Shown here piece by piece: positions 9,980 through 64,000 of a DNA stretch of 64,000 bases (the stretch's first letter is position 1; each line of letters begins with the position of its first letter). Origin of the DNA: Eledone cirrhosa (taxonomy: Eukaryota); contig OZ024742.1 of NCBI GenBank assembly GCA_964016885.1, positions 286,626,001 to 286,690,000 on the forward strand, given 5' to 3'. The position numbers and the translations under genes are program-made. A model generated the notes under the pieces. The model was not told the DNA's origin, ran no database searches, and saw only the letters and a program-made list of their open reading frames with translations.

Positions 9980-10367
9980 AATGTAATCTGAGTTTTTCGA
10001 ATATTAATAACATTCGATTCGTTTGCAATTATACAAACAATCCTCATTTTTATAGCCATATCAGTAGAATGAACCCTTTATTCTTCGTCTTGTGTTGGCA
10101 TCTGAACAGAACTGCAGACACTAATGTTTCTGGGTATCACCCTTCATCAGTACAGCTCACTGTCCACCTTCCAAAAACATTCGATTCGTTTGCAATTATG
10201 CAAACAAGCTTATGCCAACACAAGAGCAAGAATGAAGGGTTCATTCTACTGACATGGCTATACAATTGAGGCTTCTTTGCATAATTGCAAACGAATCGAA
10301 TGTTATTATTAATATTCGAAAAACTCAGATTACATTTATTGTATTCAGCCATGAAGAGCGAAATTTT

Positions 10368-10644: not shown

Positions 10645-10648
<4 letters not shown>

Positions 10649-11250
10649 GAAATTGAAATTTCATTTCTCACTCTTAGTACGGCTGATACTTAAATATAAG
10701 TATGTATACGTACATACATATATGTATACAGACGTACAGTAGTATGTATATACATACATACATGTACACATATATATATATGTACGTATGGATTTACCGA
10801 ACATTTATTATAATGTTCGGTTTGTTTGTAAACAAACAGCCCGAATTATTAGCCGTACAGTGTTCGGCAACCATCGTTGCCCTTTTGTTCAACACTGACA
10901 AAGGAGCAATGAACTAGTTTATAGCTTCTTAGCTGTCATCAGCACCGCATACCTTCCTGTCAATCGATTGAACGTTTGAAAGTATATACTTTCCTTATGC
11001 ATATTAACGGCTGAGTAGCCTGATTTGCTTTGCCAGTGTTGGACAAAAGGGCAACGATGGTTGCCGAACACTGTACGGCTAATAATTCGAGCTGTTTGTT
11101 TACAAACAAAGAGAACATTATAATAAATGTTCGGTAAACCCATACGTACATATATATATATATATATATATGTGTGTACATGTATGTATATATATACATA
11201 CTACTGTACGTCTGTATACATATATGTATGTACATATACATACTTATATT

Positions 11251-11255
<5 letters not shown>
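10645..11255 (-). mobile_element. Diverged copy of the 466-bp HHR element, with 5' inversion
   Basis: Aligns by eye with 28441-28906; HHR at 10906-10948 has G12 mutated (UAAAC); inverted arm ~11035-11250; (TA)n flanks. Confidence 0.8.
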
Positions 11256-28389: not shown

Positions 28390-28444
<55 letters not shown>

Positions 28445-28739
28445 AAACAAAATGAAAACGAAATTTCATTTCTCACTCTTAGTATGGCACTTACTTAAAT
28501 GTAAGTATGCATGTATACGTACATACATATATGTATACAGACGTACAGTAGCATGCACATATATATATATATATACATATATACATACATATGCATACAG
28601 GTACACATACATATATGCACGTATCAGTTTAGCGGCGCTAACGTCGCTTTGTTCGTTTGTAAACAAACTGAACAGCCTGAATTTATGCCATACGGTGTTA
28701 AGGCAACCACGTCACCTTTTTGTTCAACACTGACACAGG

Positions 28740-28784
28740 AACGATGTACTAGTTTCAAGCTTGTTAGCTATCATCAGCACCGTT
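28740..28784 (-). ncRNA. Type I minimal hammerhead ribozyme
   Basis: AACGGUG-CUGAUGA-U AGCU aaca AGCU U-GAAAC UA GUA-CAUCGUU; 7-bp stem I, palindromic ACUAGU stem III. Confidence 0.9.
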
Positions 28785-29205
28785 TACCCATCTGCCAGAT
28801 AGTTGAACGTTCGAAAGTATATACTTTCCTTATGAAAATTAACGGCTGAGCAGCCTAATTTGCATATTGAGTGAGTTAAATCGGTCAGGCATACCGAAAA
28901 CGATAAATTGAAACAAAATGAAAACGAAATTTCATTTCTCACTCTTAGTATGGCACTTACTTAAATGTAAGTATGCATGTATACGTACATACATATATGT
29001 ATACAGACGTACAGTAGCATGCACATATATATATATATATACATATATACATACATATGCATACAGGTACACATACATATATGCACGTATCAGTTTAGCG
29101 GCGCTAACGTCGCTTTGTTCGTTTGTAAACAAACTGAACAGCCTGAATTTATGCCATACGGTGTTAAGGCAACCACGTCACCTTTTTGTTCAACACTGAC
29201 ACAGG

Positions 29206-29250
29206 AACGATGTACTAGTTTCAAGCTTGTTAGCTATCATCAGCACCGTT
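29206..29250 (-). ncRNA. Type I minimal hammerhead ribozyme (second unit)
   Basis: Same sequence as 28740-28784, offset by 466 bp. Confidence 0.9.
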
Positions 29251-29834
29251 TACCCATCTGCCAGATAGTTGAACGTTCGAAAGTATATACTTTCCTTATG
29301 AAAATTAACGGCTGAGCAGCCTAATTTGCATATTGAGTGAGTTAAATCGGTCAGGCATACCGAAAACGATAAATTGAAACAAAATGAAAACGAAATTTCA
29401 TTTCTCACTCTTAGTATGGCACTTACTTAAATGTAAGTATGCATGTATACGTACATACATATATGTATACAGACGTACAGTAGCATGCACATATATATAT
29501 ATATATACATATATACATACATATGCATACAGGTACACATACATATATGCACGTATCAGTTTAGCGGCGCTAACGTCGCTTTGTTCGTTTGTAAACAAAC
29601 TGAACAGCCTGAATTTATGCCATACGGTGTTAATGCTTAACACCGTATGGCATAAATTCAGGCTGTTCAGTTTGTTTACAAACGAACAAAGCGACGTTAG
29701 CGCCGCTAAACTGATACGTGCATATATGTATGTGTACCTGTATGCATATGTATGTATATATGTATATATATATATATATGTGCATGCTACTGTACGTCTG
29801 TATACATATATGTATGTACGTATACATGCATACT

Positions 29835-29924
<90 letters not shown>

Positions 29925-29926
29925 CA

Positions 29927-29957
<31 letters not shown>

Positions 29958-30757: not shown

Positions 30758-31037
30758 ATATATTAATAAAAGGAATTCCAACTTTGTCTGATTTACTCGT
30801 TTTATTTACAATCCTTTAAAATTTATAATGGTATTATAATGAAATAGTATGATAGAATATTAAATGTTAAGTGTTCAATTAACACTTAACATTTAATATT
30901 CTATCATACTATTTCATTATAATACCATTATAAATGTTAAAGGATTGTAAATAAAACGAGTAAATCAGACAAAGTTGGAATTCCTTTTATTAATATAATC
31001 TTCTATACACAATCATACACACCCGTGTATATTTATT

Positions 31038-62377: not shown

Positions 62378-62680
62378 GGCTATACATTTCAGACAACACT
62401 AAGAGAATTTTTAAAGCGGCCGTCCAACTACACGTGGGAGAGAGAAGTCACAGCGTGTTTAAGGGCAGTGAACCAGTGGCCTATGAGGGACGAGCTGCTA
62501 GAAAGGGCAGCCTAAAGCCACTCAGAGAAGTGTGCTCAACCAAACAGAGAAAGAGGAGAAAGACTGTTATATTTTAGAGTCCAGGCAAAGGGTAGCATCA
62601 AGGAAGTTAACATTTTTAGTGTTTTTATCTAAGGTGATACTTAAGTTGAAGTTTTTGAAAATCTTATGTAATTTTATGTA

Positions 62681-64000
62681 ATTTTCAAAAACTTAAACTT
62701 AAGCATCACCTTAGATAAAAACACTAAAAACGTTAACTTCCTTGATGCTACTCTTTGCCTGGAGTCTAAAATATATACACCCTTTCATAAACCAAACGAA
62801 ACACTAATTTATGTGGATACCAACTCTAACCGCCCTAAATCCATATTAAACTCTATTACTAAAGGAATATCTAATAGAATCTCTAATTTATCATTTAACA
62901 AAACCATATTTAACAATAATTCCCAATACTATAATGAGGCCTTAGCTAAATCAGGCCATAAAAATGAGATTGAATTTCTACCTATAAAATCACCTAGTTA
63001 CAACATTATTTCTCATAATATGGCCATGAGGAAAAATAATAAAAGTACTAGCCACATTAACTCTAATACGAAGAGTAATAAACTTAACTCGCACCAAAAT
63101 AAACACCACAATAATAATATAAACAGAAATGCAAATACCTCAAAAAACATTACAAAAAACAAAAATAGAAGAACTAATACATTCTTCAATCCCCCTTTCA
63201 ATCTAAACGTCTCTACCAACTTGCCTAAGGCATTCTTCTCAATCCTAGAAAAAAACTTCCCAACCGGCCACAAATACCATAATCTTATCAATAAAAATAC
63301 CATTAAAATCTCTTACTCTACCACACCTAACATCGCATACCATATAGCTAGTAGTAATAAAAGGAAGATTAATAATTATTTCCAACTAATTAAAACACAA
63401 CAGGGGTAAACTTACAGAACAACATATTACCTGTAAATCCTAGTAGCAATAATAATAATGGTAATAGCACTAATGAAATCAATAACAATAGGAACGACAA
63501 CCATCATTACCCTAATGCTATCTCTAGCAACCAGACTTCTATACAACATAGTAACCGGCAAGCAAACAACCAGAATAACTGTAACTGTAGAACAAATAGA
63601 ACTTGCCCCTTAGGTAAAAATTGCTTAATCAAAGACATCATTTACTCATGCACGGTCAACACAAACAACTCTTCTAAAACATATATTGGCTCAACTTCGA
63701 ACTGCTTCAAGACGAGATACAACTCGCACCTCCACTCTTTCAAAAATCAAAATCTAGCCAACTCCACTTCTTTATCTAGCTACATACACTCTCTGAAAAC
63801 TAGGAATAGACCATATACACTTCAATGGGAAGTAGTAGGTAGGGCCGCATCGTATAAACCACCGAATAAATTGTGTAACCTCTGTCTTCTAGAGACCCGT
63901 TCTATAATCTTTTCGAAACCAGACCTTCTAAATAGAAAATCAGAGGTGTTTTCCTCATGCCAGCACCACTACCGACACTCGTTCGATAACTTTAAACCTA
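62681..64000 (+). pseudogene. Naiad-type PLE: RT C-terminus/thumb + GIY-YIG, 5'-truncated with inversion; runs off window end
   Basis: VNFLDATL..KPN..YV..SN.P; FFNPPF..NV.TN..ISYS; frameshift at ~63400; NCNCR..CPL..IIY..YIGST..CNLCLLE..LLNRKSE. 62568-62662 is an inverted copy of 62681-62775. Confidence 0.9.

Follow-up and report, generated by a model that had tools for sequence, protein, structure and literature searches.

Non-LTR retrozymes have already been described in mussel, coral, axolotl and frogs, and the element class treated here is therefore not new. Those of coral, Mytilus and axolotl are, according to Cervera and de la Pena (2020; PMC7229834), non-coding, low-GC tandems present in thousands of copies, with one type I hammerhead per unit (quoted unit length 150–450 bp) and a predicted self-paired circle, and Penelope-like elements (PLEs) co-occur with them. 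Vertebrate non-LTR retrozymes, with units of 51–972 bp in mostly short arrays, were interpreted as non-autonomous, PLE-linked derivatives of PLEs (Li, Clavereau, Pollet 2026; bioRxiv 10.64898/2026.07.22.740005). In that preprint, the link consists of co-occurrence and similarity to pseudo-LTRs (pLTRs), local tandem amplification is suggested, and the sampling as described includes no mollusc. For EN+ PLEs, partial tandems, an inverted 5′-truncated partner and a one-sided tail between two reverse transcription (RT) start sites downstream of the hammerhead are on record, at AT-rich or (TA)n targets and with no clear target site duplication (PAc Poseidon, Frangieh et al., PMC11167929; Craig et al., PMC8557442, for the partner in inverted orientation and the preference for (TA)n). 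A Penelope protein introduces a nick into each strand and begins RT from two internal positions, the distance between which equals the genomic tail (PMC11167929). Three questions are described as open in PMC7229834, a 2020 review (PMC7761336), PMC11167929 and the 2026 preprint: which enzyme moves animal retrozymes, whether their tandems stem from rolling RT or from subsequent amplification of DNA, and whether hammerheads of the PLE type are active in vivo. The literature searched, outside which lie the supplements of PMC7229834 (which may hold cephalopod examples) and of the preprint, yielded no cephalopod retrozyme or two-site end anatomy; the main text of a 2026 Octopus vulgaris repeat annotation contains neither "ribozyme" nor "hammerhead", and the giant squid paper gives only a count (235 Rfam hammerhead-1 matches).

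The locus studied here lies in a 64,000-nt stretch of Eledone cirrhosa DNA (the window). It consists of a direct, "tail-ended" arm (28441–29633, minus strand) of 2.56 units (2.6 copies according to TRF), across which period-466 identity is exact with no mismatch between units, and of an inverted arm (29636–29839, plus strand), which matches the units exactly over 204 bp and forms a near-symmetric palindromic junction with the direct arm. Counted from the ribozyme cut in RNA sense (monomer positions q1–q466), the direct arm has its 5′ break at q46 and its 3′ end at q306, and the inverted arm covers q45–q248, where it ends at a second fixed start site. The ∼58-nt tail between the two end sites (q248–q306; 28441–28499, minus strand) is present at one outer end only. 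Both arms run into (TA)n, at 28392–28440 next to the tail and at 29840–29957 next to the inverted arm. The initial annotation of the window had recorded ∼2.55 identical head-to-tail non-coding units of 466 bp and a 200-bp inversion in a (TA)n setting, all of which stands; however, the inversion proved to be a second arm with a start site of its own. An older subfamily copy, ∼75% identical, has the same two-arm layout (10645–11252, minus strand; direct arm 10645–11028, inverted arm 11025–11252).

Only one complete cut-to-cut monomer, a predicted RNA of 466 nt, is contained in the window (29212 to 28747, minus strand). Its internal (TA/CA) microsatellite hairpin (q123–236; 28977–29090, minus strand) is the source of array-specific unit lengths. 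The longest ATG-started sense ORF of the unit comprises 48 aa, mostly microsatellite, and no coding sequence lies between units. As a circle, the monomer is predicted to be highly self-paired (MFE −152, z ∼−10), which is partly owed to the microsatellite. Contigs from a public run extend across the cut site as well as the junction of the tail with the next unit (four runs were compared, two of them with little or no cover; such contigs carry no start, strand or level information), and the continuity of the units is thus not peculiar to this assembly. At the sequence level, non-LTR retrozymes are characterized by short head-to-tail units with a type I hammerhead each, which are non-coding, free of LTR, PBS and PPT, below 50% in GC, dispersed and multi-copy, as dimers to multimers. 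The present family, with 36% GC, agrees with this in its units, hammerhead, coding content, GC and dispersal. Compared with those of PMC7229834, the 466-nt unit is slightly longer than the quoted range, and the circle of this family (family A) is a predicted one.

Two type I hammerheads are present in the direct arm (29206–29250 and 28740–28784, both minus strand), for which cleavage is predicted after GUA, between 29213 and 29212 and between 28747 and 28746, respectively. Each consists of stem I (AACGGUG/CAUCGUU), CUGAUGA, stem II (4 bp above a U·U mismatch), GAAA, the palindrome ACUAGU and the GUA cut. The U·U base of helix II is shared with axolotl HHR_Amex2, as given in PMC7229834; the usual G10.1-C11.1 pair is missing from stem II of family A. 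Rfam returned a weak HH9 match for the hammerhead (18.5 bits, E 0.037, gathering threshold 52), and the matches listed for the whole window (150 of 236) were sub-threshold, microsatellite-driven miRNA and snoRNA models. Across eight aligned copies (related rows, one with a truncated flank), two-sided changes were observed in 7 of 17 hammerhead pairs, the core being invariant except for one loss of G12; this covariation score was reached by none of 500 shuffles of the same eight related rows. The motif is not due to chance, as follows from these paired changes together with 11,769 exact genome matches of its core pattern, compared with none for the reversed control. The ribozyme reads as a canonical metazoan type I hammerhead with a short palindromic helix III, a 2-bp palindrome invariant in all eight rows. 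It had been annotated as a canonical minimal, PLE-type hammerhead with a palindromic ACUAGU; hammerheads and palindrome are there, but "minimal" denotes a helix-III-less ribozyme, without helix III or loop 3, in the part of PMC4209133 that defines it, and this designation was rejected. Similarly, the stem I change noted in the copy at 10906–10948 is real, but the same copy reads UAAA for GAAA in its single hammerhead, that is, the catalytic G12 is lost, which had been missed. In a two-strand cofold, the best predicted structure (−25.5) was not the double hammerhead (−22.2), and folding thus lends no support to a dimer. All in all, we consider it likely that the hammerhead cleaves in vivo.

The genome is likely that of an octopod also by its hemocyanin genes, which contain seven repeated units; one unit scored best against PDB 1JS8 (Octopus; 855 bits), ahead of 4YD9_C (squid; 738 bits). 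Exact patterns were counted over the 3.0-Gb genome. Besides the core pattern, the tail region gave 11,522 matches, and a pattern covering family A and a sister family (family B) gave 22,548 hammerheads. Family B was first met as a weak match in locus L076 and subsequently comprised loci L190, L181–L210 and L257–L306 (e.g., G000:C1:5738300-5752750). Its unit, also ∼466 nt, is collinear with that of family A over the whole length at ∼61% identity (309/503 columns); stems I and II carry compensatory changes between the families, and the core and ACUAGU are kept. The window subfamily's tail end running into TA was found 1,045 times, that of a second subfamily (subfamily 2) 376 times and that of family B 1,862 times, which amounts to at least 3,283 tail-ended insertions. 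Family B arrays reach ∼29 units and have the same two-site and inverted-arm anatomy. The genome search for arrays suggested by the initial annotation returned thousands of copies, with tandem arms of head-to-tail units among the loci mapped. Two identical family B insertions (L285 and L286, at C1:55.97 and 55.99 Mb) lie ∼18 kb apart and probably reflect a segmental duplication.

In 60 loci chosen by their hammerhead, arms ended at two sites only, ∼q248 and ∼q306, both into (TA)n. These sites are located 248 and 306 nt downstream of the ribozyme cut, ∼58 nt apart, with one per arm; insertions ending at the cut or at random phase were therefore rejected. To keep the hammerhead out of the selection, a second sample used the q306 end as its anchor; from the 1,045 tail-ended insertions, the first 100 in the list were taken and 95 were mapped, all on contig C1. 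An inverted arm was detected in 65 of the 95, and several more have short ones masked by the microsatellite. Where the end of the inverted arm was uncensored, it fell at q243–255 in 53 of 57 cases and ran into TA in 51 of 57. The two arms overlapped by 1–6 nt at their junction in 46 of 65 insertions, each arm held from none to more than 10 units with scattered 5′ break points, and two hammerheads within one arm were present in 53 of 95. The direct/inverted layout was repeated in subfamily 2 (24 of 40 sampled from 376) and in family B (32 of 50 sampled from 1,862, the duplicates L285 and L286 included), the tail being ∼58 nt long in family A and ∼70 nt in family B. A target site duplication cannot be read because both ends of the insertion lie in (TA)n.

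Two fixed ends separated by a tail, an inverted partner and the (TA)n bias correspond to what PMC11167929 and PMC8557442 report for Penelope, and we infer from this that the insertions would arise by Penelope-type twin priming. Mobilization of the retrozyme family by PLE-type machinery is, on this anatomy, very probable. The initial annotation had invoked a PLE reverse transcriptase, which agrees with the Penelope signature of the ends; the start points of copying, however, are two fixed positions within the unit, 248 and 306 nt past the cut. Dimensions differ from those in the two EN+ PLE papers, where the tail measures 30–40 nt and the starts lie ∼85–92 nt past the cut; family A also has no ORF and has arms of many whole units. 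Compared with retrozymes in PMC7229834 and PMC7761336, for which neither a motif for the mobilizing element nor a promoter is given, family A offers fixed ends at two sites, a tail between them, arms in inverted orientation and an octamer plus TATA box (see below). Compared with the vertebrate retrozymes of the preprint, the link to PLEs comes from insertion anatomy.

PLE ORFs encoding RT and GIY-YIG domains are present in the genome and in the window. One of them (14782–17034, minus strand) is an open Penelope-like frame of 751 aa with an RT domain, a GIY-YIG domain at its C terminus and no stop in that stretch; further fragments are a LINE-type RT at 50326–51717 (minus strand) and a PLE RT at 62672–63406 (plus strand), assigned in that order. 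As to an autonomous partner, profiles of tail and head matched nothing other than families A and B over 1.87 Mb of loci, some of them redundant, and the matches listed for a full-unit profile were mostly microsatellite. A PLE ORF close to the element in L034, L035 and L041 was considered as partner and rejected, because it belongs to an unrelated family, has a 3′ region of its own and is set apart from the element by (TA)n. In neither the 60 hammerhead-anchored nor the 95 tail-anchored family A loci did an RT/GIY-YIG ORF lie between units. The linked PLE ORF that had been proposed as a search target was consequently not encountered in the 1.87 Mb of loci, nor was, in the 60 and 95 family A loci, the refuting situation named by the initial annotation, a unit always attached to a coding PLE.

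Other hammerhead-bearing repeats occur in the fetched loci and in the window. A separate tandem family of 310-bp units with a palindromic ACGCGU helix III was seen at L035:6800-8850 and L052:5450-6350, the L035 array having seven units and an inverted arm. Two inverted hammerhead pairs with a UAUAUA-type helix III (window 41780–42345 and 48760–49275) belong to a family common in the fetched loci and are probably PLE or retrozyme ends. A single hammerhead lies at 49444 (plus strand), and short perfect hairpins in (TA)n at 27690–27920, 28110–28260 and 30800–31000 resemble paired inverted Penelope-type ends.

The longest exact word common to families A and B is the octamer block TATGCAAATTAG, a predicted promoter element (28855–28866 and 29321–29332, minus strand), followed 41 nt downstream by a TATA-like box (28817–28824 and 29283–29290, minus strand). 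In three distinct U6 promoters of the same genome (12 U6 loci), the octamer is found at −76 to −78 and TATA at ∼−31; octamer-to-TATA spacing is 40–41 nt in the hammerhead units versus 45–47 in U6. When U6 spacing is applied, transcription would start at ∼28793–28796, ∼10 nt upstream of hammerhead stem I. U2 promoters (12 loci) had no octamer within 300 nt. The combination of octamer and TATA is also found ahead of hammerhead-like motifs that belong to other families (L241, L040, L342), and a pattern built on these had no match in shuffled loci. According to PMC7761336, retrozymes seem to lack promoters. Newt satellite 2, which is similar in features (a hammerhead tandem with palindromic helix III that cleaves as a dimer), was reported to have an internal snRNA-type promoter (PMC2220036); the family A octamer at −77 plus TATA resembles U6 and not U2 of its own genome. 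Runs of T5–T8 were counted on the sense strand of 175 of the 177 units of family B and of 36 of the 208 of family A, and make read-through by Pol III hard to reconcile. We nonetheless consider an internal snRNA-type promoter (octamer plus TATA) in each unit somewhat more probable than its absence.

Several of these loci deserve description in their own right. At L040:7650-7830 and L342:7870-7950 (both minus strand), octamer and TATA are followed ∼30 nt later by GCAG and a hammerhead-like motif with CUGACGA. Another hammerhead family with a longer helix III is represented at window 10110–10160 (minus strand), L241:2380-2790 and L050:7094; ahead of the L241 hammerhead, octamer-like words recur and a TATA-like box is present. 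The U2 genes (2.2-kb tandem, C3) and U6 genes (1.8-kb tandem, C19) in L307–L330 share a ACCUCCCUU-like word ∼265 nt upstream, and a TATA-like box is additionally present in the U2 promoters.

Units resemble their neighbors far more than units elsewhere. Of 556 within-insertion pairs of whole units, 263 (47%) were identical, as were 63 of 134 pairs taken across the two arms, versus 10 of 1,485 pairs between insertions (0.7%), and 55 insertions comprised 49 haplotypes. In family B, the corresponding figures were 23 of 54 within and none of 300 between insertions. Such a difference implies repeated passage through a single unit, as a monomer circle would supply. In 24 of 27 arrays of at least three units, no variant outside the microsatellite was shared by a subset of units (in three there was one), and 354 of 361 unit junctions read were full-length (a few of the loci overlap). 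Arm lengths range smoothly from under one unit to over ten and are uncorrelated between arms (rho 0.06, n = 48), either arm being the long one; the mean RT run is ∼970 nt, with up to 14 full turns within one arm. In L337, all 18 units over both arms are identical, and in L121 and L160, as in L337, both arms are long and identical. Other arrays are more complex: in L338, a pattern of three units recurs, some of it in both arms; L334 (13 units) and L335/L336 (∼29 units), which are long arrays of family B, contain nested variants common to non-adjacent units; and haplotypes switch mid-array in L339 and L353. These data support the view that the tandems were mostly made at insertion, from mostly single-unit templates; in the preprint, local amplification is suggested instead for vertebrates. 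The proposal that rolling RT copies an exact 466-nt monomer is consistent with the 47% versus 0.7%, but L338, L334 and L335 are not copies of one exact monomer. On balance, the template was probably for the most part circular monomer RNA.

If templates are sometimes cut, RT should stop just before the cut site. Breaks at q1–33, just 3′ of the cut, numbered 24 of 160, versus 10.8 expected under constant hazard, that is, an approximately twofold excess. The bin had been picked after the first 90 insertions, for which the scan-corrected P was 0.032 over all arms, 0.0025 for paired arms and 0.34 for later crossings only, and was then fixed before new data were scored. New insertions gave 8 versus 3.5 and 10 versus 5.2 (together 18 versus 8.7, P 0.004), with a weaker result for paired arms only (13 versus 7.05, P 0.028); two rows ending at N runs were scored as breaks, neither of them within q1–33. 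The excess corresponds to ∼4% per crossing (∼13 extra breaks in ∼307 crossings), and RT hence passes the cut ∼96% of the time. Pausing of RT at the hammerhead fold could produce the excess as well. In L148 (G000:C1:184445900-184447800), the 7 nt before the cut are absent from all five junctions, leaving a dead-ribozyme array that looks as if a trimmed monomer had been closed and then copied. Deletions at the cut site were not enriched genome-wide (two events versus seven small deletions at a control site), and with a single other such event L148 is an anecdote.

We interpret the window array as one insertion of a high-copy, non-coding non-LTR retrozyme, likely put into (TA)n by a Penelope-like RT/GIY-YIG endonuclease, and likely from a ribozyme-cut and re-closed single-unit RNA circle, a reading to which we assign a probability of roughly 60%. 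What was read directly from the sequence is copy number, the covarying hammerhead, the two fixed 3′ ends with their tail, the two arms and the array-specific haplotypes. In a rival explanation, the same Penelope-driven insertion would use a linear template, namely uncut multi-unit transcripts of existing arrays, with RT jumping between ends or molecules, a hammerhead that merely trims 5′ ends or acts late, and no need for a circle. PAc inserts uncut, unprocessed RNA in vitro, its hammerhead mutants insert normally (PMC11167929), and the ∼96% passage of the cut, the ordered multi-unit pattern in both arms of L338 and the mid-array switches of L339 and L353 fit as well. Linear templates could, however, not lengthen arrays or homogenize their units without repeated passage through one unit (47% versus 0.7%), jumping from end to end again and again would have to leave no scar (354 of 361 junctions are full-length), and the L148 deletion is fixed in five of five; we regard this explanation as rather unlikely. 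Later growth of short insertions of one or two units by unequal crossover or DNA slippage, as proposed for vertebrate retrozymes and discussed in the preprint, would account for the nested shared variants of the longest arrays examined (L334, L335/L336). Young arrays are star-like (24 of 27 without a subset-shared variant), both arms can be long and identical (L337, L121, L160) and arm lengths form a smooth range, all of which renders such growth improbable as the general origin.

In another rival explanation, the unit would be the ordinary pLTR of a coding Penelope element, with the insertions as its truncated copies. Every PLE end feature is present, Xenopus retrozymes are related to pLTRs (preprint), and rare full-length masters could sit among the thousands of copies outside the fetched loci. 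The 60 and 95 loci, however, consist of head-to-tail unit sequence with no coding sequence between units (flanks of 30 unpaired arms were inspected over 60 nt, as nucleotides), families A and B are collinear over the whole unit at ∼61% identity, and no pLTR related to the family A unit was found in the loci examined here, so that a pLTR origin appears very improbable. An assembly artefact or a chance ribozyme-like motif, which the complete identity of the window units and an Rfam score far under the gathering threshold might suggest, is next to impossible to reconcile with thousands of loci of distinct haplotype and length, covariation between families and independent bridging contigs.

According to the retrozyme reading, an internal snRNA-type promoter (octamer plus TATA) or host read-through would give rise to a multi-unit RNA, which paired hammerheads would cut into 466-nt monomers to be closed by a host ligase. 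Among predicted Xenopus retrozyme dimers, only one of nine tested cleaved (preprint). A dimeric Penelope protein would then nick both target strands and prime at q306 and q248, each RT would circle its template for ∼1 kb on average and sometimes for more than 10 turns, with stops roughly doubled in frequency immediately ahead of the cut site, as would follow if a fraction of the templates were cut, and the two cDNAs would be joined by microhomology. A minority of insertions would derive from multi-unit or switched templates, or from later local expansion.

For a retrozyme, the footprints of mechanism in families A and B are unusually clear, and the start sites, template haplotypes and break points defined in the tail-ended insertions, of which there are at least 3,283, turn the questions held open for retrozymes into a genome-wide count. 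The 466-nt RNA is easy to assay, and the questions can be reduced to a simple in vitro test of target-primed reverse transcription (TPRT). More tentatively, octopods may harbor a clade of self-promoting circular-RNA retroelements, in which a U6-like promoter sits just ahead of the hammerhead in each unit, and Penelope protein, acting as a dimer, primes at two fixed sites of the circle and rolls in each arm, sometimes falling off a re-cut template. If this were true, the genome would be a direct record of thousands of rolling-circle TPRT events, and rolling copying would also explain why Penelope elements at large have partial tandems and inversions.
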